Counted from the first letter of the stretch, positions 6,994 through 31,272 are shown. The stretch: 64,000 nt of DNA from Coleofasciculus sp. B1-GNL1-01 (GCA_040220235.1 JAVJTO010000088.1), one strand, 5' to 3'. Notes: generated by a model not told the origin, from the sequence alone. Numbers and translations are program-made.

Positions 6994-7063
6994 CGTAGGG
7001 TGGGTTAGGCGGAATTTAAACCGAAGCAATAACCCTTTAATAGAGTATCCGCCGTAACCCACC
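6994..7063. repeat. REP-like dispersed palindrome GTAGGGTGGGTTAGGCGG...CCGCCGTAACCCACC
   Basis: Related copies at ~26294-26361, 29466-29534 and 31077-31145; degenerate copies inside the 19867-20765 array. Confidence 0.8.
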
Positions 7064-13262: not shown

Positions 13263-14730
13263 TTGACTTCTCCCCTGGTTAAAAACGCAGGGGATTCTAA
13301 GAGGATACTGCGGGACGGGCTAAAGCCGCGTCCCTCCGTTTCATCTTCTTAGAGTTCCAGAGGAAAACTCTGGATGGCGCAGTCAAAAACGCCCTACTGA
13401 CCCTGGCTAGATTGAGACCTAGCTGTATCTCTACTTTGCGGAGGATATTAGCAGCACCGTTAGCATCGGCGTTGACGAATTCTCCTTTAAGCGTGCGGTA
13501 CATTCCTCGTTTTACTCGCTTCCCACTAGCCTTCCACCCTTCCGGCTTGGAGCCGAATACAGGTAGAGTATCGTTGTCGAGAAAACTAGCTTTAGAGGTA
13601 TAACTTTCTTCAGTTTCTACGAACTGAATTCCATAGTGTTTGCACAGTTGCTCAATCCTATTTTTGAGACGGGCGGTAGGAATTTGAACAAACTCTTGAT
13701 TCGTCTTTTTCCCCAGCTCAATCCCATCTTTATTGTGTCGATTCCAACCGAAAACGACTCTTCCAATTCGATGTTGGAGGCAATGGTTGATAACGACACG
13801 AGCGGCTTTGTTAACCGCATCTCTTACTTGCCTATTGCGCCTTTCTGTGAGAAAGGCTAATTCTTCATTCCAAAATCCTTGAGCTTTCCCCAACTTAATG
13901 GTTGCCACCCGTTTGTTGTAGAGCTGATTAAGACTCTTTAATTTACGTCCATCAACAATAAAGCTGGTTCCTACATTAGAAACACAGGTCATCCAGTTGT
14001 TGAGTCCGGGGTCGATTCCTATTACCCGTGAGGAGTCTACATCTGCTGTTACAGAAGGCAGGAGGTAGACAAACTCAGCATAGAAGCAGCCGTTGCGGGG
14101 AAGGATTCTCAGCTCTTTGATGTCTTTGAAGGCAAGATTAGATGGCTTATGAATGAAGAAATCCGCTATCTTGAACCATGTCTTGACTAGCGTTCCTAGC
14201 GGTATTCTGATTTGACCATCTTTAATCTTCAAAGCTTGTTTAGGATAACTCACAACAGAAAGACCGCCCTTCTTTAAATACTTAGGTAGTCTAGGATTGT
14301 CCGCTATCTTTCCTTTTCTGAACGCCTTCATCAACCCATCAAACGACTTGAAAGATTCACTAACCGTTCTTAGCGCTTGTTGAGCTGCCTGAGAATAGAG
14401 AGCTTGGAAATGTTTGTTGTTTTTGTACTCCTTTTCTAAGTCATATTTGCCGATAATCCGCCGACACTTAAACCAGACTTGACGAGCATAATAAATACCG
14501 CAGTTCATTAAGTTATTCGCTTCGGTGCAAATAAACTCTAGAACGGCGGTTAGATCTTGATCTGGATTTAATAGTAATTGCTGACAACCGTACAAGAAAA
14601 TCACCTCCTTGTTTAGGGTTATATTATATCACTTGAAGAAATTATTGCGGGATAAATCCCGCTGTCTTTACGACTTGCTCGGTTTCATCCCCCGACGCTC
14701 AGTACGGGGGAGCCTGCACCATCGCTTATA
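13263..14730 (-). mobile_element. IS200/IS605-family tnpB-only (IS1341-type) element
   Basis: Left hairpin CCCCCG..TCGGGGG (~14688-14712); right end GAAT-CCCCTG..CAGGGG-AGAAG-TCAA ending at 13263; interrupts the kinase gene. Confidence 0.85.
13297..14595 (-). CDS. tnpB: RNA-guided endonuclease TnpB
   Basis: GIDPG, EESYTSKAS, NADANGAANI; AGGAGG RBS before TTG 14595. Confidence 0.9.
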   Translation of the reverse strand: MYGCQQLLLNPDQDLTAVLEFICTEANNLMNCGIYYARQVWFKCRRIIGKYDLEKEYKNNKHFQALYSQAAQQALRTVSESFKSFDGLMKAFRKGKIADNPRLPKYLKKGGLSVVSYPKQALKIKDGQIRIPLGTLVKTWFKIADFFIHKPSNLAFKDIKELRILPRNGCFYAEFVYLLPSVTADVDSSRVIGIDPGLNNWMTCVSNVGTSFIVDGRKLKSLNQLYNKRVATIKLGKAQGFWNEELAFLTERRNRQVRDAVNKAARVVINHCLQHRIGRVVFGWNRHNKDGIELGKKTNQEFVQIPTARLKNRIEQLCKHYGIQFVETEESYTSKASFLDNDTLPVFGSKPEGWKASGKRVKRGMYRTLKGEFVNADANGAANILRKVEIQLGLNLARVSRAFLTAPSRVFLWNSKKMKRRDAALARPAVSS

Positions 14731-15543
14731 CTGTAAGGCAATTGCCCCGAATAACCGTTCCCGTTGTTGCGCTGCGACGCGATCGCTGATATCTAGTAGA
14801 GTACCGAATAGTTTATGTACCTGACCCTGGGCATTGAAAATTGGTTCTCCTTGGGCGAAAAGATGGCGGATAAACCCATCAGGGCGCAGGATACGAAATT
14901 CTAGTTGGCAGGATTTCCCCCGAACAAGCTGGTGAACTGTTTTTTTCCAAGCCTTTCTATCATTGCCATGAATCGTTTGCCAATGTTCTCTTATGGTGGG
15001 TGTGGGTTGTCCTGGAGAGAGTCCATAAATGCGGAAGGTTTCATCGGACCAAGTAATGTTTTGGGTGGCTAAATCAAATTCCCAGCTTCCCACATGGGCA
15101 ACTTTTTGAGCTTGGGCAAGGTGGGTTTTTTCCTGCCAGAGTTCCGCTTGGGCTTTTTGACGTTCCTTGATTTCGGCTTCGAGTTGGGCGGTGCTGGGGA
15201 TTGTCAGGGCTTGGGGAAGTAGTCGGACGAGTTCTGCTGCGGTTACTACGGAAATCAGGGCAGTCGAGGCTTTTATCCAACCGGATAACCAGTAATTCGG
15301 ATGCCAAAGCGTCCAGATTTCCATAATATGGGTCGTACCACAGGCAATGATGAACCCACTAAATAACCAGAAAATCCAGTTAAATGGGACATCATTTCTC
15401 TTGGTGACAAAATAAGTTAGCGTTAGGGGAATGGAGTAATATGCCAATGCGGTGAGAAAATCAGAGATTAGGTGTAACCAAACTAATCCCGGCTTCCAGA
15501 GGTAGCAATGTCCGTGGGGAATGAAAAATTCTGCCAATACCAT
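14668..15543 (-). pseudogene. Sensor kinase, 5' part (ethylene-binding-type TM domain + PAS), reading into the IS left end
   Basis: SDFLTALAYYSIP...FIIACGTTH ETR1-like motif, PAS, then LFGAIALQ fused to IS-derived tail. Confidence 0.8.
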
Positions 15544-15737: not shown

Positions 15738-16568
15738 TTAAACGGCAAATGATAAGGGAAAAAATAACCGCAGATAAGCTGACAAAATAGCTTCTCCCAA
15801 AAAAACTGTCAATCCAGCACCTAATGCCAAAAATGGTCCAAAGGGCATCGGTTGTCGCCGATTTAGCCAACCCATTGCCATGGCACCTCCCCCAGCGAAT
15901 GCGCCGATTGCACAGGCTAAAAACCCAGCTAATAGTAAATACTTCCATCCCAACCAAGCCCCCATCATTGCGGCTAATTTGGCATCTCCTCCGCCCATGG
16001 CGGTTTGCCCAAAGAGGATAGAACCGACTAGGGTGATGATGTCAAATAACCAAATTCCCAACACTGCACCGCTTATTCCGGTCATGAGTTGAGCTGATAT
16101 ATCGGAAAGTTGAGTGGTTTGGAAAAAAGCGAATGCGCCTTGAAAGAGTATACCTGCAACTAATCCGGATTGGGTGAGGGAGTTGGGGAGTGTCATGGTA
16201 TCGAGGTCAATTAAGGATAGGGCTAATAACCAGCTTAAAAATGCCCAATAGCCAAAGGTTTCTAGGCTTAAGCTATAGTGTAAAAATACGAATAAAAATA
16301 ATAGTCCGGTGATGGCTTCGACTAGGGGATAACGCCAAGAGATGCGACTACGACAATGGCGACAGCGCCCTTTTAACCACAACCAACCGAGGATGGGAAT
16401 GTTCTCTCGTTTGCCGAGTTTGTGTAAGCAATGCGGACAACGGGAGGGGGGAAAAAGGATGGATAAGTTGGCGGGTAGGCGATAAACGACGACGTTGAGA
16501 AAGCTACCGATTGATGCGCCGAGGGCAAATACGATTAAAGAGGTGATGATGATAATTAAAGTATCCAT
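15738..16568 (-). CDS. pilD: Prepilin peptidase/N-methyltransferase
   Basis: GSFLNVV, two CxxC pairs, IDLD, GGGDAKL, PFGPFL. Confidence 0.93.
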   Translation of the reverse strand: MDTLIIIITSLIVFALGASIGSFLNVVVYRLPANLSILFPPSRCPHCLHKLGKRENIPILGWLWLKGRCRHCRSRISWRYPLVEAITGLLFLFVFLHYSLSLETFGYWAFLSWLLALSLIDLDTMTLPNSLTQSGLVAGILFQGAFAFFQTTQLSDISAQLMTGISGAVLGIWLFDIITLVGSILFGQTAMGGGDAKLAAMMGAWLGWKYLLLAGFLACAIGAFAGGGAMAMGWLNRRQPMPFGPFLALGAGLTVFLGEAILSAYLRLFFPLSFAV

Positions 16569-18297: not shown

Positions 18298-19047
18298 TCA
18301 TTAATCTCACCCACGCGCCTTATTATAAGATTAATCAGGCGTGCAGTTTTCATCCCAGTCTGAAATTATTTCCTCATACCCTAACCTTAATTGGCATAAT
18401 TCATTTATTCAAAGAAAAATTTTATCAGATATTTGATAACACTGATTTCGCTGAGTAAGGAGCATAGGTAGTGGTGGGGACTTGGCAGGTTATTCCCACT
18501 GATTTCACAGAGGTGTTAGCTCTCAATGGGGCTAAGGATGAAAAGATGATTGTCCCCGGATAAAAAATGATTAGCTTGTGGGAGGACTATTTTCTCGTCT
18601 GTGTCAATCTGTGTGCTTCACTATTTGCTGTTCTATCTGTGCTATTCCATCTGTGCAATCTGTGTTTTTGTCAAGTCTTGGTCATGATTTTTATCGTAAG
18701 TTTAAAAAAATACATGCGTTCAAGGGAACATTAGCCGTGAGGCAAAAACTAGAAATTATACAAAGTTTTACGAGAATTCAAGGGTTTTAACGTTGTCTAG
18801 ATGATTGAAACTTACAAAAAACCCACCATAAATACTATACCTGAAAACTCCACATTTTTCTCACAATCGCCGTAACCCTTGAAAATTCGTAGATTATTCG
18901 GGAAAAGGGGTCAAAAACGAGCAATTATAACGTTTTGTTGAAACAAGACTCTAATTGGAAAATTTAAACTTTTTGGGGAGGAAGGAATAGTTTAAGTTAT
19001 CAAAACTTGACAAGTTGAGCTAAAACGATATTGAGTCAAGCTACAGA

Positions 19048-19200
19048 TATAGCACTACGCATTAGGGTTAGGACAAATGAAGAAAAATCCAAATTGCTCA
19101 ATCCCTTGATGAGTAAGCTTTTTTCTTCACTATTGCCTATGACACACCGAGCGAAGCCGAGGTGTTGCCTATTGCCTATTGCCTAGCGCGTAGCGCTATA
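19048..19200. mobile_element. TA-flanked MITE (TIR TATAGC.CTACGC)
   Basis: TATAGCACTACGC...GCGTAGCGCTATA; similar TATAGC-ended elements at ~39952-40056, 50772-50865 and 56174-56275. Confidence 0.65.
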
Positions 19201-19367
19201 TGTCAGTAGCGAAGGAGAAAGAGTAACGGGGTATGTTGTGAATCGTGGTTGTTGGCAACAGAGCGATCGCCTGTAGTCATATCATTTGAGGGGAATGGAA
19301 TTGCGGTGGTCATTTTGATATGATGAATTGTCTGTTCCCCTGTTACCTATTCCCTATTCCCTGAAAA

Positions 19368-19748
19368 ATGGAAATTGAACGCTTTAAACTCTCCAAATCA
19401 GCTAAAGACCAACTAACCAAACTCAAACGCTACACTAAAATTGATCAGTGGAATATTCTTTGCCGTTGGGCGTTTTGTCGTTCCCTGGCGGAACCGACTC
19501 AACCTTCACCTGTCCCGATTCCGGCTGACTCGAATGTGGAAATGACATGGCGGGTGTTTGGTGGCGATTTGGCTGATATTTTGTTAATGGCGCTGAAACA
19601 ACGCTGTCATAATGATGGTTTAGGGTGTGATAAGGATACTCTTACCAATCAATTTCGCCTTCATCTACATCGGGGGATTGGGTATTTAGCGGGTGATCCC
19701 ACGATTAGGAAAATTGAAGATTTTATCGAAATTGCCAATAAGCAATAA
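19368..19748 (+). CDS. dndE: DNA sulfur modification protein DndE
   Basis: LKRYTKIDQWNILCRWAFCRSL and FRLHLHRGIGYL motifs, 126 aa. Confidence 0.9.
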   Translation: MEIERFKLSKSAKDQLTKLKRYTKIDQWNILCRWAFCRSLAEPTQPSPVPIPADSNVEMTWRVFGGDLADILLMALKQRCHNDGLGCDKDTLTNQFRLHLHRGIGYLAGDPTIRKIEDFIEIANKQ

Positions 19749-19866
19749 ATGTTCTTGGTTATTCACCTCTCTACACCCTTCCATCATGCATGTCTGGTTA
19801 TTTTCGATGACATTATGTGTGATGTGTTCTGTGTTTGTTAACTCTGTAGGGGCGAGTTAGGGGTTA

Positions 19867-20765
19867 CGGTTAATAGGGGTCTACAGGTCGGCACATTTTC
19901 CCATGATGAAATAGTACCTAAAATGCGCGATCGCGTCAAGTCCTAATCTTTATTTCTTTCGAGGCGATTATCCCTTTATTTGCCATGTTCACCTGCATAT
20001 CTGAAGAGGTTCATCTGTGAACAAAGGAGATGGAGACAGGGGATGTTGGTGGATTACGGTGGATAGCGAATATAAAGGATTAGTTAGGTCAATTGATTCC
20101 TACCTAACCCACCCCACAGGTTCCGGTGAATAGGGGTCTATAGGTCGGCACATTTTCCCATGATGAAATAGTACCTAAACTTGGCGATCGCGTCAACCCC
20201 TAATCTTTTTTCTTTCAGGACAATTATCCCTTTGATGTGCCATGTTCACCTGCATATCTGAAGGATTCATCTGTGAACAAAGGAGATGAAGCCAGGATTT
20301 TGGTGAGTTACTGTGGATAGCGAATATAAAGGATTGGTTTGGTCAATTGATTACCACCTAACCCACCCCACAGGTTTCGGTGAATGGGGGTCTACAGGTC
20401 GGCACATTTTCCCATGATGAAATAGTACCTAACATTCGCGATCGCGTCAACCCCTAATTCTTATTTCTTTTGGGGCGATTATCCCTTTGATGTGCCATGT
20501 TCACCTGCATATCTGAAGAGGTTCATCTGTGAACAAAGGGGATGAAGACAGGGGATTTTGGTGGATTACTGTGGATAGCGAATATAAAGGATTAGTTGGG
20601 TCAATTGATTACCATCTAGCCCACCCCACAGGTTCTGGTGAATGGGGGTCTATAGGTCGGCACATTTTCCCATGATGAAATAGTACCTAAAATGCGCGAT
20701 CGCGTCAACCCCTAATCCTTATTTCTTTCGAGGCGATTATCCCTTTAATGTGCCATGTTCACCTG
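19867..20765 (-). repeat. Tandem array of 3.5 x ~257-bp units, each with a minus-strand promoter
   Basis: Periods 257, 254 and 258 bp; invariant 37-bp core AGGTCGGCACATTTTCCCATGATGAAATAGTACCTAA in all four copies. Confidence 0.95.
19911..19939 (-). promoter_or_regulatory. Sigma70-type promoter, array copy 1 (others at 20168-20196, 20422-20450, 20680-20708)
   Basis: TTGACG-N17-TACTAT on the minus strand in all four copies. Confidence 0.7.
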
Positions 20766-21395
20766 AACATAGGTATGATTGAGGATTTTTCCTATTCCCC
20801 TATCAAATTACGACTTGTCTTCCTCTTGAATTAACTTTTAATAAAGAATAAATTATTAGTTAACGGTTGAGATGAGAGAACCGGAAATCGGGAACCGGAA
20901 AGAGTAATAAATTGACTTTCGTTAACATTTATTTATACAACAGACATAATTTATGTCCGGGTACTTAAAGTTACCATAAACTTGTAGGCAATCGCCATTG
21001 TGGTTGTTTAGAATATCGGTTGACTAGATTATCGGCGAGTAGAGAATTCTCCGCTCTACTAGCATGATCACTAGATCCGGATTCTAGCGAAGAAAGACGT
21101 TGCCGTGTCTTGATTCCAGGCTGGCTGATTGAGTTACGGTGAAATGATTTATTCTTTTAGCCAAGAAATAAGACGGCAAAGGGAACCGCATCTTCTCAAC
21201 AGGTGTAAGACAGATCTACCTCAAAAATCCGGACAGGTATAACAGGTTTGGGTAAGTAATAGCGTATCACTGTCAATGGCACGATAGGTCTATTCCTGTT
21301 TTCTGACTTTAGCTTAACCCTCAAAAAACCTGTCAAAAAAGAATTATTAACTTAGGGAAATCTACAACGGTGATCACAGCTTACCGTTCAATTTA

Positions 21396-21525
21396 TAAGT
21401 AGTCAGATAAAAGAAAACGGCACGGTATTAAGTTTTGCAAATAAGCCTCAAACCCTTACATAAACGAATGACGAAGGACAAAGGACGGTCCCCACCGCCA
21501 GACTGTAATTGTGTCCACCTACTTA
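21396..21525. mobile_element. TA-flanked MITE
   Basis: TAAGTAGTCAGA...TGTCCACCTACTTA; inverted homolog of 11719-11882. Confidence 0.7.
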
Positions 21526-21619
21526 GCGCTAAAACCCAAGCCTAGTGGTTAATCGCAAGCCGCAACTGGAATATCCTCTACTTGTTCAGGACGTCGCTCA
21601 CCCCCCTATAGAGAAACCT

Positions 21620-24600
21620 ATGACACAAAAATCATTGCTAGAAATCTTTGAATATATTTCCTTGGCTGGCTCTGCTGTCGGAACTGTCGTAGCGGCGACA
21701 TCTCAGCAGGTGGCTTACGCCGCAACGCCGTTAACGGTGGCGCTGGCGCTGAATCTGTTGAACCGACGTAACATAATACAGCAGACACAGGATAGCACCA
21801 GAAGTGCGATCGGGGAAACCTATCAACTGATTCAATCCCTACATCAACAAGTCCAAGCTATCCCCACGCTGAATAATCAACTCAATAGCTTAGACCAACA
21901 ATTTAATGCTCGACCCGAAAAAACGGCAATTGAGGACTTAAAAGCCTCCCTAAGTGAATTAACAGAACAATTCACCCAACTGAGTCAAACCTTTAATACT
22001 CGCCCGGAACTACAAACCATTGAACAGTTGCAAACCACTGTTGCACAATTGACCGAACAGTTTAATAGCCTTAGCACTCAGTTCGAGCAGCTACCGACTG
22101 AGCCAGAGGTAGACTTAAGTAGCATTGAACAAGCCGTTTTTGAACTAACGGAGCAATTTAGCCAACTCTATCAACAATTCCATAGTCGTCCCGAACTTGA
22201 GGATATTGAGCAAACTCAGGCGGCGATCGCCCAACTCCATGAACAACTCGGTACTATTACGGTTCGCCTGGATCACTTACCTGCATCATCCGAGGTAGAC
22301 TTAAGTATGCTCGAAGGCGCGATCGCCGAAATTACTAGCCAAGTTGACACCTTAACCACGCAAGTTAACACCCTACCCAGCACCAGCGACACTGATCTCA
22401 CCGGAGTAGACGCCGCACTTTCAGAACTCACCGAGGAATTTAGCCAACTCCAAGAACAGTTCCAGACTCGTCCAGAACTGCAAACCATCGCCCAACTTAG
22501 AGATCACCTTGCAACCTTGACTCATCGCTTAGATGAGTTACCCACCGCACCCCTAACCGACTTAATTAGCGTCGAAAGTGCGATCGCCGAAATTACCAGT
22601 CAAGTTGACACCTTAACCACTCAGGTTAACACCCTACCCAGCGCCAGCGACACTGATCTCACCGGAGTAGACGCCGCACTCTCAGAACTTACCGAGGAAT
22701 TTAGCCAACTCCAAGAACAGTTCCAGACTCGCCCAGAATTACAAATCATTACTGATCTGAGTGAACAACTCGAAACCCTCAGCACTCGCCTGGATCAACT
22801 TCCCACCGCACCAGCGGCTAACTTAAACGGTTTAGAACCCGTTATTGCTCAGATTACCAGTCAAATCGAAACCTTAACCGCACGAGTCAATACCCTTCCC
22901 CTCTCCGGCGAAACCGATTTCACCGAAATTGAAGAAGCGATCGTCCAAATCCATGGTCAAATTAACACGATTCAGCAGCAATTCCAGAATCGCCCTGAAC
23001 TGCAAATTATTGAGCAATCCCAACGTGCGATCGCAGACCTAAGCGAACAACTCGAAACCCTTAGCCAGCGCCTGGATCAGCTTCCCACCGTACCCGGCGA
23101 AGAGTCAACCGCGATCGCCGAAATTACCCATCAACTAGACAGCTTAACCACTCAGGTAAACACCCTCTCCCCCGTTTCTGACACCGATTTGCGCGGGATA
23201 GAAGGTGCGATCGCGGATATCAGCGAACAACTGGAGACATTAAGCGCACGAGTTGATCATCTCCCCTTAACCGCCACCCCCGAAGCCACCGACTTCAGTG
23301 AAATCGAAGCCGCGATCATTGATTTTAATCAACAACTGGGTCAACTCCATCAACAATTTACCACCAGACCCGAACTAGAAACCATTGAGCGATCGCAAAC
23401 CGAAATTAGCCAGCTTACGGAACAATTTGCCATCCTCAATAGCCGCCTTGACCAACTCCCAACGACATCAGAGGAAGGCGTGGAACAGGTGATTGGCGAG
23501 ATTCGGGGTCAAATTGAAACCCTCAGCCAACGAGTTGACCAGCTTTCCCCAGTTTCCCCAACCGATGTCAGTCAGTTAGAACAAGCCATTACTGACATTA
23601 CCGCACAAATCGACAACTTAACCCAGCAAGTCAACACCCTCTCTACTCCTTCAGACACCGATCTATTTGACGCAGAAGACACCCTGGCTCAAATTCAAAG
23701 TCAGATTAACACCCTGAATCGACAGTTCCAGACTCGACCAGAACTTCCAGAACTTGAGCAAACACAAACCGCGATCGCCCAACTGACGGAGGAACTGGAA
23801 ACTCTTAGCAACCGCCTGGATCAGTTATCCACAGCACCAGAGGGTGATGGTAATGTCACCGAACAAACCATTACTGAGATCACCGATCAGATTGAAACCT
23901 TAACCGAACGGGTAAATACCCTATCCACTCCCCCAGACACCGATGTGAGTGGAATCGAAACCGCACTGTCAGAACTCACTGACCAATTTAGCCAATTCCA
24001 GCAACAATTCCAGACTCGTCCAGAACTAGAGGAAATCCAGCAATCTCAAACCGCGATCGCCCAACTGAGTCAGCAACTGGAAACCCTTACCACGCGCCTG
24101 GATCAGTTGTCAACCACACCAGAGGGTGAGGATAGTCTCACTGAACAAACCCTGGTTGAGATTACCCGTCAAATTGACAGCCTAACCACACAGGTAAATA
24201 CCCTATCCACCCCTACCGAAACCGATGTCAGTGGCGTTGAAACCGCGCTGTCAGAACTCACTGACCAATTTAGCCAATTCCAACAACAGTTCCAGACTCG
24301 TCCAGAACTAGAGGAAATCCAGCAATCTCAGAATGCGATCGCGGATCTAACTGAACAACTGGACACCCTGAGTACCCGCCTAACTCAGGTATCGACGACA
24401 CCAGAGGTAGATCTGAGTGGGATTGAACAAACCATTGCCGAAATTGCGGGTCAAATTGACACCCTAACTCAACGAGTGAATACCCTCTCCACTCCCACCG
24501 AAACCGATTTGAGTGGGGTAGAAGACTCCCTATCTCAACTAGCGGAACAATTTAGCCAACTCCAGCACCAGTTCCAGGAACGTCCAGAACTAGAGGAAAT

Positions 24601-26245
24601 CCAGCAATCCCAAACCGCGATCGCGGATCTAACGCAGCGACTGGAAACCCTGAATATTCGCCTGAATCAGTTACCTATTGTTCCCGAAGTCGATCTGAGT
24701 GGGATTGAACAAACCATTGGCGAAATTACGGGTCAAGTTGAAACCTTAACCGAACGGGTGAATACCCTCTCCACTCCCACCGAAACCGATTTGAGTAGCG
24801 TCGAAGCGGCGCTGTTTGATTTAACTGAACAAGTCAGTCAACTTCAGCAACAATTCCAGGAACGTCCAGAACTAGAGGAAATCCAGCAATCCCAACGTGC
24901 GATCGCGGATCTGACTCAACAACTGGACACCCTGAGTACCCGCCTAACTCAGTTACCGACAACGCCAGACGTCGATCGGAGTGCGACGGAACAAACCATT
25001 GCCGAGATTACCGATCAGATTGAAACCTTAACCGAACGGGTAAATACATTATCCACTCCCACAGCACCCGATCAAAGCGGAATCGAAGCTGCACTTTCGG
25101 AACTCGCGGAACAATTAAGCCAACTCCAGCAACAGTTCCAGAATCGTCCGGAACTCCAGGAGATGGAACAGTCGCAAATCATGATTAGTCAACTGGCTGA
25201 ACAACTGGAGATACTGACGAATCAGCTTGATCAAACCTCAGCGACGCCGGGAGTCGATTTGATGGAAATCGGATCAGCGATCGTTGATGTTCATGATCGC
25301 CTGGATCAACTAACGGCGCGTTTCGAGCAATTTCCGGGGACACCCGACACCGAACCCGCACCGATTCAACCCACCCTTACCGATTTAGTCGAAGAGGAGG
25401 TTGTTGCACCTCCGCCTCCCATCCCCACAATCCCCGCACTGGAACAAATTCAGCAACTTCCCGAAAATGAGGCGATCGCACCGCTTACGGATAAGCTAAA
25501 ATCCCTGAACGAACAGTTTCACAATCAGCCTGCGACTCAAGCGGTTGAGGGATTAAAAATGACGCTGATTCAGTTAACGGATCACGTCAACATAATCACA
25601 TCTCGTTTGGGAGGTTTACCGACAACGCCAGACCTAGATCTGAGTGGGTTAGAACAAGCGATTACCGAGGTTCACACCCAACTCGACGCCTTCAATCAAC
25701 AGTTTAATGCACGACCGGAAGTTCAAGCCATTGAGCAATTGCAAGAGGCGATCAATCAGCTAGGTGAGCAGATTTATACCACCCTGGTGCAATTTACTGA
25801 AGACTCGGAATCAATGTCCAAGAAGGAAAAAGATGACGCCCTCAAGGATATCGATTTCCAGTTAGATGCGATGGAGTTGTGTCTAGAGAACCTACCCATG
25901 CTGGCTGACTTAGACTTCAGTGGGGTGGAAGGAGCGATCGCCGCGATCGACGAACAGCTTGACAATCTAACTCAAACCATCGCCGAGAATCAAGCTGCAC
26001 TCTTTGAAGTGGATCTCAGCGGTGGAGAGGAGGCGATCGAAGACATTAATCGTCAGATTGAGGCGCTCAATCAAAAAATCAGTTCCCAATTAGATAAAGC
26101 GACGATAAAACAATTGGAAGACGCGATCGTTCATCTGAAAAAACAGCTTAATGCGGTTACGTTTACTTTAGAAACACTACCCGTGGCGTCCGATGATATG
26201 GACTTCGGTGGAGAAGAACCAGACATCGCTGATTTACAGTGGTGA
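21620..26245 (+). CDS. Very large acidic coiled-coil repeat protein with N-terminal hydrophobic hairpin
   Basis: Repeats such as FQTRPELEEIQQSQ with 282-bp (94-aa) period at 24017/24299/24581/24863; likely ATG at 21620. Confidence 0.85.
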   Translation: MTQKSLLEIFEYISLAGSAVGTVVAATSQQVAYAATPLTVALALNLLNRRNIIQQTQDSTRSAIGETYQLIQSLHQQVQAIPTLNNQLNSLDQQFNARPEKTAIEDLKASLSELTEQFTQLSQTFNTRPELQTIEQLQTTVAQLTEQFNSLSTQFEQLPTEPEVDLSSIEQAVFELTEQFSQLYQQFHSRPELEDIEQTQAAIAQLHEQLGTITVRLDHLPASSEVDLSMLEGAIAEITSQVDTLTTQVNTLPSTSDTDLTGVDAALSELTEEFSQLQEQFQTRPELQTIAQLRDHLATLTHRLDELPTAPLTDLISVESAIAEITSQVDTLTTQVNTLPSASDTDLTGVDAALSELTEEFSQLQEQFQTRPELQIITDLSEQLETLSTRLDQLPTAPAANLNGLEPVIAQITSQIETLTARVNTLPLSGETDFTEIEEAIVQIHGQINTIQQQFQNRPELQIIEQSQRAIADLSEQLETLSQRLDQLPTVPGEESTAIAEITHQLDSLTTQVNTLSPVSDTDLRGIEGAIADISEQLETLSARVDHLPLTATPEATDFSEIEAAIIDFNQQLGQLHQQFTTRPELETIERSQTEISQLTEQFAILNSRLDQLPTTSEEGVEQVIGEIRGQIETLSQRVDQLSPVSPTDVSQLEQAITDITAQIDNLTQQVNTLSTPSDTDLFDAEDTLAQIQSQINTLNRQFQTRPELPELEQTQTAIAQLTEELETLSNRLDQLSTAPEGDGNVTEQTITEITDQIETLTERVNTLSTPPDTDVSGIETALSELTDQFSQFQQQFQTRPELEEIQQSQTAIAQLSQQLETLTTRLDQLSTTPEGEDSLTEQTLVEITRQIDSLTTQVNTLSTPTETDVSGVETALSELTDQFSQFQQQFQTRPELEEIQQSQNAIADLTEQLDTLSTRLTQVSTTPEVDLSGIEQTIAEIAGQIDTLTQRVNTLSTPTETDLSGVEDSLSQLAEQFSQLQHQFQERPELEEIQQSQTAIADLTQRLETLNIRLNQLPIVPEVDLSGIEQTIGEITGQVETLTERVNTLSTPTETDLSSVEAALFDLTEQVSQLQQQFQERPELEEIQQSQRAIADLTQQLDTLSTRLTQLPTTPDVDRSATEQTIAEITDQIETLTERVNTLSTPTAPDQSGIEAALSELAEQLSQLQQQFQNRPELQEMEQSQIMISQLAEQLEILTNQLDQTSATPGVDLMEIGSAIVDVHDRLDQLTARFEQFPGTPDTEPAPIQPTLTDLVEEEVVAPPPPIPTIPALEQIQQLPENEAIAPLTDKLKSLNEQFHNQPATQAVEGLKMTLIQLTDHVNIITSRLGGLPTTPDLDLSGLEQAITEVHTQLDAFNQQFNARPEVQAIEQLQEAINQLGEQIYTTLVQFTEDSESMSKKEKDDALKDIDFQLDAMELCLENLPMLADLDFSGVEGAIAAIDEQLDNLTQTIAENQAALFEVDLSGGEEAIEDINRQIEALNQKISSQLDKATIKQLEDAIVHLKKQLNAVTFTLETLPVASDDMDFGGEEPDIADLQW

Positions 26246-26787
26246 TTGGTCATTGGTCATTGGTCTTATGTCCTTTGTAAGAACCGTATAATCGTAGGGT
26301 GCGTTAGGCGGAACAACTCATATTTATGATCCTGTTAATAGGAATGTCGCCGTAACGCACCATGATTTGCAATGTTAATCAACAACTGATTACCGAAGAT
26401 ATTACGCTCTATTTAATTCCTATTTTCTGATTCACTCTTGCATTTTTCCACAATCATGAGATTCTACGTCCAACCAATTTCTCGCACCAATGGTGCGAGT
26501 TTTTCAAATAGCTTCAGGCGTATGTTAATCGGGGCGGGTTTAATTACTTATAAGTGCAACCGAAAAGATAGTAGTGAAACCCGCCCCTACACAGTTTGTC
26601 GGTTGGGTTGAGTGAAGTCGAGGTAAGCCCTCACCGTCGAAGCCTCACGCGGCTCGACTGAGCTTCGCCGAACGTCCGAAGTCCGAGGTGTTGCCTATTG
26701 CCTATTGCCACTATCGTGAGTTTCACATCTCAAAGGTAAACACTATTATAGTGAGGAAAGGAAACGCTGCGATCGCTTAACTCCTAT

Positions 26788-29413: not shown

Positions 29414-29639
29414 TGTCTCGACTACTCCGCAGATTAAACGAATAATGTATTCTCCCGTTAATATTGGTGGGTTACGGCGGATACTTCATTAAATGGTTAT
29501 CACTTCGATTTAGATACCGCCTAACCCACCCTACGTTACTATTTGGTATTTCCAGTTTAAGGGAGCAACAATGTTGGCTGAGGATAAGACAGATCGGGGT
29601 ATTTATACCGGAAAGGAGCCGGAAAATAATTTAAGGTCA

Positions 29640-30690: not shown

Positions 30691-31272
30691 CGACAGAGAA
30701 CAGAAGGTTGTCAGGTTTTTTGTATTTACTTTATCACGAGAGCTGGACAACCTCTCTCCAAACGAAGAATGGCGTGAGTTTGACGCCTGTTGTATCAAAC
30801 AAATGGTAGGGGCGCACTGACGTGCGCCCGATTTAACCCTTCGACCCTTCGGCACACTCAGGGCATCGCTTCGCGGCAATTGAGCGTTCGACTGAGCGCT
30901 CACGCGGCTCGACTGAGCATCGCCGAACGTCCGAAGTCCTGTCGAAATTCAGGGTTAACCGTGTAATCTATTGCTTAATTTTAGGAGTTGTCGGTTGGGT
31001 TGACGCAGGAAACCCAACCAAGTTTAGGATTATTGTCTGAAATATTGATTGAATAATATTTTCTCCCGTTAATATCGGTGGGTTACGGCGGATACTTCAT
31101 TAAATGGTTATCACTTCGATTTAGATACCGCCTAACCCACCCTACGTTTTTTGATTCAAGTATTTTTCCCCTGGCTCTTTTTTTGAGAGAAAGGGGTTTT
31201 AATTTTGCTTATTATGTTATAACATTATTACAAGTAAACAGTACACTAATATAACACAAGGAAAAGAAGCTC

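Follow-up and report, generated by a model that had tools for sequence, protein, structure and literature searches.

What is a tandem array of promoters doing immediately downstream of a dndE gene, and does it serve that gene or belong to something wider? The question is raised by a 64-kb window (the whole stretch of DNA analysed here, C88:95830-159829 of an 8.66-Mb Coleofasciculus genome designated G000), in which dndE (19368-19748, plus strand; Pfam DndE, E 1.5e-43) is convergent with a repeat array at 19862-20765 whose predicted transcription, on the minus strand, runs toward the gene. An earlier note on this DNA had read the array as a set of self-contained small-RNA units, possibly coupled to DndE and phosphorothioation as an antisense, guide-like, or antitoxin-like RNA.

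Anatomy of the tandem array

The array begins 114 bp past the dndE stop codon and consists of 3.5 units of 254-258 bp, as seen both with TRF, which reports a single array (period 258, 90% matches, score 1491), and in an alignment of the four copies (A1). Each unit has a sigma-70-type promoter on the minus strand, TTGACG-17-TACTAT, and the promoter scan returns exactly four such sites, located at 19911-19939 in the dndE-proximal unit, at 20168-20196 in unit 2, at 20422-20450 in unit 3, and at 20680-20708 in the distal unit 4. The predicted start is in every unit the A of ATGGG, at positions 19904, 20161, 20415, and 20673, and from these bases extend the 26-nt predicted 5' ends, termed cores 1 to 4 (19879-19904, 20136-20161, 20390-20415, and 20648-20673, respectively, all on the minus strand). 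The alignment contains an uninterrupted invariant run of 37 columns that spans the -10 box and the predicted start, while the spacer bases and the remainder of the unit vary, with small indels and a mean column identity of 81%. Thus, the repeat structure, the one promoter per repeat, the invariant block, and the four starts described in the earlier note are all recovered. In the surrounding 2.6-kb region, nine promoter-like sites are present, compared with 6.7 +/- 2.4 in shuffled sequences; the four promoters of the array are copies of one another and therefore count as one event, not as four.

Behind cores 2, 3, and 4, nhmmer detects a dispersed hairpin repeat on the minus strand: a diverged copy of a ~70-nt family at 20047-20117 (C88:115876-115946), 44 nt behind core 2, and further copies at 20301-20371 (C88:116130-116200) behind core 3 and at 20559-20629 (C88:116388-116458) behind core 4. 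Also, an inverted repeat, TGTTCAC...GTGAACA, to which no strand is assigned, can be read from the sequence of unit 2 at 19986-20023, where it forms a local hairpin in the fold prediction; its other copies are at 20243-20279 and 20498-20535, with the left arm alone near 20756-20762. Core 1 is oriented toward dndE with its predicted start 156 nt past the stop codon, and both hairpins are absent behind it, in agreement with the previous description of a final copy that lacks the 3' part and is aimed at the gene.

The site scan finds no terminator-like site on either strand within 19862-20765, and the predicted fold of one unit is no more stable than those of shuffled sequences (z +0.96 for the sense strand and +0.64 for the antisense strand). 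For these two reasons, discrete small RNAs are not predicted, and because of the missing terminators, the units cannot be called self-contained, as they had been. No ORF of 60 aa or more is present in the array, the only frame listed there being a 48-aa GTG frame at 20529-20675, and the array is predicted from its sequence to yield non-coding RNA. A search of 18500-22000 against Rfam (cmscan, E up to 10) gives chance matches only, to snR75 (E 0.3) and RcsR1 (E 7.6), consistent with the statement that it matches no recognized RNA. Eight sets of metatranscriptome contigs from related strains, each containing 12-18% of the sampled words, match the region 19000-21600 in short pieces with 90-99% identity that are pooled over family copies and strains; some of these pieces include promoter sequence, and the contigs are uninformative on starts, strand, and level.

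The array unit combines two separate modules

A search of the genome with one array unit gives 44 matches, which split into two separate modules. The first is the sigma-70-type promoter together with the first 26 predicted transcribed bases, ATGGGAAAATGTGCCNNCCTATAGAC, referred to as the tag. In its own genome, this module has 26 copies at up to 5 substitutions and 33 matches to R1, a sequence-only model of positions -16 to +30 built from a second alignment (A2), and the promoter with its 5' sequence is found at about 25 places besides the array, adjoining unrelated genes.

The second module, called a REP-like palindrome in the earlier note, is a diverged copy of a 70-nt dispersed hairpin repeat with 97 nhmmer matches, corresponding to about 90 distinct copies, in the same genome. 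This repeat has sharp ends and the form (C/T/A)GTAGGGTGGGTTAGGCGG...TCCGCCGTAACCCACC with a variable middle, and six copies have a compensatory G/C arm variant, GGGTGCGTTA...TAACGCACC. Examples within the window are located at 6994-7063, 26293-26362, 29465-29535, and 31077-31146, and the repeat is sometimes found in tandem, with three in a row at C75:19284-19557. REP-, REPIN-, and MITE-type elements are dispersed hairpins, and the 70-nt repeat resembles them in its dispersal, copy number, sharp ends, and compensatory arm variant, being distinguished by the 10 of its 97 matches, and only these, that lie behind a core at a fixed distance of 43-52 nt. REPIN and Correia elements are among those named in a survey of putative mobile promoters (PMC3575422).

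Other dispersed repeats, with 11 to 125 copies each, crowd the spacers that flank dndE and the array. A ~600-bp element at 18420-19020 has 11-13 copies in the genome, the short repeats at 19020-19230 have 50-113, and those at 21366-21545, just before the neighboring gene, have 36-125. This gene, the neighbor of the array opposite to dndE, is a 1566-aa ORF (21545-26245, plus strand) for a coiled-coil repeat protein; it contains tandem repeats of 261 bp, or 87 aa (TRF rows 22298-22925), and has many weak coiled-coil-type Pfam matches, including DUF2730 and spectrin-like repeats. Elsewhere in the window, a 291-aa protein with an ETR1_N ethylene-receptor-type N-terminal domain (E 9e-44) and a PAS domain is encoded at 14668-15543 on the minus strand, adjoining a prepilin peptidase gene (15738-16568).

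Promoter geometry and conservation of the tag

A comparison of 114 distinct copies of the promoter-plus-leader module, taken from its own genome and from named Coleofasciculus records, reveals how closely the tag is tied to the promoter. The script recognized a promoter in 95 of these copies. In 78, a TTGACA-like -35 box lies 16-18 nt before a TAnnnT -10 box, with a gap of 6-7 nt to the tag, and in 17, an extended -10 box (TGnTAnnnT) without a -35 box is followed by the tag after 9 nt. Regarding the remaining 19 copies, inspection by eye places TTGACA before a weaker -10-like hexamer in 16, and the last three, which come from one orthologous locus, have no -35 box. The first base of the tag is always A or G, as expected of a transcription start. 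Hence, in three promoter designs, the -10 box is found 6-9 nt before the tag, which puts the first base of the tag at the expected start of transcription.

Moreover, 24 of the 26 tag positions are fixed across subfamilies with unrelated flanks, whereas beyond about +28, nothing is common to copies of different subfamilies. The tag is conserved as two blocks parted by two free bases (NN), and its first 13 nt are fixed across genera, where the -35 box, the -10 box, and the downstream sequence all diverge. When 17 array units from seven genomes are compared, hardly any variation is seen from column -36 to column +26, and the rest drifts, which argues that the promoter and the tag of each copy are kept by selection or by conversion. 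The conservation inside the motif is in part a matter of ascertainment, since the copies were found by searching for the motif itself.

Conservation of this type could also be expected if a repressor bound the DNA from +1 to +26 of many promoters, with the arrays acting as clusters of decoy operators. Many protein sites are likewise conserved in sequence without covariation, in two blocks with free bases between them, and in the present case, the conservation reaches upstream of the predicted start, to an A at -3. However, by eye, the element is neither a dyad nor a direct repeat, no candidate regulator was identified, and the gap to the -10 box is nearly fixed (6-7 nt in 78 and 9 nt in 17 of 95 copies), which fits the 5' end of a transcript better than an operator. 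We regard this explanation as unlikely.

The tag could also be a leaderless mini-gene of seven codons, M-G/E-K-C/Y-A-x-L/I-stop (MGKCAx(L/I)), whose 5'-terminal AUG or GUG would control the RNA in cis. The start codon does coincide with the predicted +1, the variants retain start and stop (ATG to GTG, TAG to TAA, CTA to CTG), a stop at codon 8 recurs in many other genera as ATA TAA or ATA TAG (by eye), and codon 5 uses all four alanine codons across genera. Nonetheless, in codons 2-4, the synonymous positions are no less fixed than the others, and codon 6, variable at positions 1 and 2, has C at its third position throughout. In several genera, codon 8 is not a stop, the frame being open for 10-57 codons, and the stop is inseparable from the conserved TATA(A/G) block. 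On this evidence, a coding function for the tag is highly improbable.

Neither a binding factor nor a pairing partner of the tag was found. A complementary partner RNA, with G-U pairs allowed, was sought with 2297 degenerate matches and no pattern as the outcome, searches with the sub-blocks added merely a few degenerate copies of the family, and no consistent covariation of the two free bases with the downstream sequence is apparent by eye; a local GCCGGC...GCCGGC pairing is seen in genus g190. Rfam searches with 14 other family loci of the own genome (E up to 1) and with 20 loci from other genera returned nothing relevant.

Two further candidates were set aside. By eye, the tag does not fit the consensus operators of NtcA, CRP, LexA, or HLR1. 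Also, AAATGTGCCNNCCTATAG resembles the promoter of a T7-like single-subunit RNA polymerase in its -17 to +1 layout; this idea was dropped, and the upstream sigma-70 promoter explains the data better. The corresponding polymerase family, PF00940, has no match in the G000 genome, but the control genomes are equally silent.

Genes adjoining the module

In the G000 genome, the module is found in the sense orientation at the head of several genes: BrnT with a partner gene, a PIN (VapC) gene with an upstream partner, an antitoxin with a ParE-like toxin, UPF0175 with a PIN-like gene, and also genes for DUF29, PDDEXK_2 (Rpn-type), and a methyltransferase, besides a 634-aa ORF. The leaders from the module to the start codon measure 98-530 nt. 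Other copies are convergent with their neighbors, namely dndE, a GDSL lipase gene (facing an array), the genes for a pentapeptide-repeat protein and an amidohydrolase, alaS, and a PIN gene; these copies start 108-250 nt past the stop codon, or 362 nt in the case of the PIN gene. In other genera, with the genes named by eye, the module heads a helicase-like gene, ParE-like and MazF-like pairs, an antiporter gene, and an acetyl-CoA-synthetase-like gene. With the same module beside so many unrelated genes, dndE is not singled out.

A cassette-like run is located at the beginning of another contig (L113, G000:C91:1-6000), with four cores 915-1217 bp apart in one orientation. Three of them head a PIN pair, a ParE-like pair, and a methyltransferase gene, the first faces a convergent PIN pair, and every core is bounded by HIP1 (GCGATCGC) sites. 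At least 11 cores are arranged as in L113 over 9 kb of a contig from a second genome of the genus (G003:C47).

Relation of the array to dndE

The dndE gene of the window is the sole dndE match in the genome. Its earlier designation as an orphan holds for its position, being unlinked, and does not hold for the gene content, given that dndC (C105:5563-6894) and dndD (C105:7401-9380), both passing the NCBIfam cut-offs, are present on another contig. A core faces dndE in eight of the nine Coleofasciculus genomes, at 156-166 nt from the stop codon in the seven where this codon was located and at about 240 nt in G008, in which a different member of the family occupies the site. The number of copies beside the gene is four in G000, at least six in G006, at least three in G002, and one in G004; for G001, G005, and G007, the count is at least one each, as the contig ends there. 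The units of G002 measure 233 bp, with a 24-nt recombinational deletion. In G003, dndE is present without a core, and the sequence past the gene is unrelated. The single copy of G004 has no hairpin, and the most likely origin of the array is therefore that the hairpin repeat was inserted first and unequal recombination came after.

The dndE genes of the genus are 94-96% identical, and these genomes are therefore close relatives, in which the link between core and gene represents synteny and not independent evidence of a coupling.

An RNA made by the array for DndE or phosphorothioation, whether antisense, guide-like, or antitoxin-like, would be in line with the core that faces dndE in most of the genus and with the absence of a terminator-like site between the proximal start and the gene. 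However, many genes unrelated to dndE are headed or faced by this module, a second array is aimed at the GDSL lipase gene, the dndE of G003 has no core, and that of G008 has a different one. Neither dndE sequence nor a variable, spacer-like segment of the kind a guide would need is present in the units, and no toxin gene adjoins the array, which speaks against the guide-like and the antitoxin-like variants in turn. A regulator specific for dndE is thus very unlikely, and the array is probably not a device for this gene, while the proximal copy may act on it in antisense. Nor is the array a chance duplication.

Distribution of the module

At up to 2 mismatches, the module is present in all nine Coleofasciculus genomes, including G000, with 15-30 copies in each (24, 26, 22, 30, 29, 15, 30, 20, and 20 for G000 to G008), and in none of 32 other genera; the reversed-pattern control gives 0. 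When 185,579 species, each represented by one genome, were scanned with the exact pattern, 81 stretches matched, and all but one are in Coleofasciculus records; the exception, in a 374-bp contig of a Marinobacter-labelled metagenome-assembled genome, is probably a binning error. Viral contigs have 0 matches to either the genus pattern or the general pattern, and a plasmid collection has no match to a 56-nt homologue used as the query.

A looser pattern finds single look-alikes with the same promoter geometry in other genera, and R1, at E <= 0.001 per genome, has matches in 26 of 148 genomes that belong to the order but not to the genus, and in 0 of 142 from other orders of the class. The training of R1 included three sequences from outside the genus (G028, G200, and G075), so the matches in these three genomes are there by construction. 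The homologues of other genera read TTGACA-17/18-TAnnnT-6 nt-(A/G)TGGGAAAATGTG, and their consensus is TTGAC(A/T)-17/18-TAnnnT-6 nt-(A/G)TGGGAAAATGTGC(C/G)NNNC(A/C)TATA(A/T/G). By R1, several genera are rich in copies, such as g190, with 13-15, and g32, with 5-14. Tandem arrangements are also found beyond dndE: G000 has a second array on contig C15 (3.3 x 276 bp), the one aimed at the GDSL lipase gene, the arrays of its relatives have units of 254 bp, 233 bp, 274-285 bp, and 325 bp, and tandem pairs 215-243 nt apart are present at four loci of g190 and in G415. On sequence grounds, the family spans the order, with diverged homologues beyond the genus.

At one locus of another genus (L173, G409:C4:217500-219300, 726-779), the second half of the tag is stuttered, the 15-nt unit GTGCCGGCATATAAG being repeated 3.5 times in tandem immediately behind the promoter.

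A selfish or neutral mobile repeat that carries a promoter, with the dndE array as a by-product of unequal crossing-over and no role of its own, could account for much of this distribution, and we consider it a possible although rather less than probable explanation. The expansion of the module is genus-specific, the unit is a mosaic of a core and a roughly 90-copy hairpin repeat, some of the subfamilies are bounded by HIP1 sites (by eye), and the spacers around dndE are crowded with other dispersed repeats. The copy number beside the gene (0, 1, at least 3, 4, or at least 6) is as would be expected of unstable repeats, the G002 units have their recombinational deletion, and both a fold signal and a terminator are absent. 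Nonetheless, neither a transposase nor inverted ends or target duplications were observed, copies within a cluster all share one orientation, and the tag is fixed at 24 of 26 positions despite the unrelated flanks of the subfamilies. The constancy of its first 13 nt across genera, with the rest diverged, argues for selection on the tag, though selection for mobility fits too.

Comparison with known systems

The TRF repeats, the four promoter-like sites, and the lack of an ORF of 60 aa or more support an NsiR1-like array with one promoter per repeat. According to PMC6596454, NsiR1 of heterocyst-forming cyanobacteria is composed of tandem direct repeats beside a protein gene, with a promoter for each repeat and a non-coding transcript, a layout shared by the present array as far as it is predicted. 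However, the array has no match to the NsiR1 covariance model (Rfam, E up to 10), its promoter is of the ordinary TTGACG/TACTAT type, its unit of about 255 nt has no terminator, and the conserved part is confined to the first 26 nt, which are predicted to be common to mRNAs and antisense RNAs elsewhere.

The Yfr2 family offers a second comparison. These cyanobacterial sRNAs are described in PMC2662882 and PMC6596454 as having 1-9 copies and a conserved 5' motif without synteny; in the latter, the term actuaton is used for a Yfr2 that is either free-standing or forms the start that an sRNA has in common with the mRNA downstream of it, and PMC6778093 reports that the 5' motif pairs with Yfr1. 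The module described here is likewise one conserved 5' element in many copies, free-standing or before unrelated genes. Nevertheless, the Yfr2 motif, as read from the primers in PMC2662882, is GGUGUGUGAGGA-like, in contrast to AUGGGAAAAUGUGCC in the tag, from which a Yfr2 motif of the GUGUGAGGA type is absent and for which Rfam gives no match. Also, the copy number of the module is far higher (15-40 per Coleofasciculus genome), and tandem arrays occur.

The closest structural analogue in print, likened by its description, appears to be an array of Trichodesmium erythraeum, a marine, filamentous, and non-heterocystous species. In that report (PMC4143802), seven tandem repeats of 736-973 bp are described on the opposite strand to the neighboring gene, and every repeat has a start that was mapped and an ncRNA of roughly 260 nt whose function is unknown. 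The repeats include duplicated 3' parts of the neighboring gene, and for the remainder, the authors report no similarity elsewhere. The motif strings are absent from two supplementary files of the report, which may not contain sequences.

Putative mobile promoters, which are closely similar promoter regions before unrelated genes of one genome, are reported in PMC3575422, some of them common to several genera or orders and most without an Rfam match. The module similarly places like promoter sequences before non-homologous genes of one genome. In contrast to those elements, its conserved part is the predicted start of the transcript, flanked by diverged promoters, and it additionally forms gene-less tandem arrays and antisense units. 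The survey set minimum values of 80% identity and 50 nt for matches in the region -150 to -50 from start codons, and with 98-530 nt between the module and the start codons, most copies would be outside this range.

Two other types of repeat array were considered and discarded. Neither ToxI-type antitoxin repeats nor CRISPR-like guide arrays correspond to a period of 254-258 bp with units about 90% alike and no spacers, and for the former, the neighbors of the array are dndE and the gene of the 1566-aa coiled-coil repeat protein, with no toxin gene. A literature search for the motif strings found no paper, no copies were present in the supplements of three transcriptome papers, which may not list sequences, and the literature on small RNAs of Coleofasciculus yielded unrelated work only. 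Accordingly, no earlier description of the promoter-plus-leader family was found.

A proposed shared tag at the 5' end of many transcripts

Taking these observations together, we give about an even chance to the explanation that the array is a tandem-amplified promoter-plus-leader module, whose shared 5' RNA tag is read by one factor. Each unit would start a non-coding RNA at the first purine of the tag, from a sigma-70 promoter. The tag would be the working part, as suggested by the conservation of its sequence without covariation and by its tie to the start, which holds for three promoter designs and in different genera. Most likely, one shared factor, either a protein or an RNA, would read the tag at the 5' end, and all transcripts headed by it could thereby be handled together, the gene-less tandem arrays being a high-dose source or a decoy of the tag. 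Given that the units have no terminator, transcription may read through from one unit to the next and then continue antisense through dndE, in which case convergent transcription or pairing of the antisense RNA would dampen this gene, as a side effect limited to the locus.

A more far-reaching version, which we put forward tentatively and with considerable doubt, is that the order possesses an undescribed system of 5'-terminal RNA tags read by a dedicated factor. In such a system, dozens of unrelated transcripts, comprising toxin-antitoxin operons, nuclease genes, and antisense RNAs, would begin with one invariant 5' sequence, and the gene-less arrays would be tag sponges that set the amount of free factor.

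Implications

If the module is merely a mobile promoter, it would be a clear case of promoter spread that rewires many genes and gives rise to antisense transcription of others, dndE and alaS among them. If instead the tag is functional, as the preferred explanation holds, a regulon-like set of 15-40 transcripts per genome would exist in a major mat-building cyanobacterium, with smaller sets in other genera. Toxin-antitoxin genes and further accessory genes would make up many of its members, and the link between all of them would be the first 26 bases of the transcript and not an upstream operator. Such a family would be the third multi-copy non-coding family of cyanobacteria, beside Yfr2 and NsiR1, and a 30-nt bait would provide a concrete handle on the factor that reads it.
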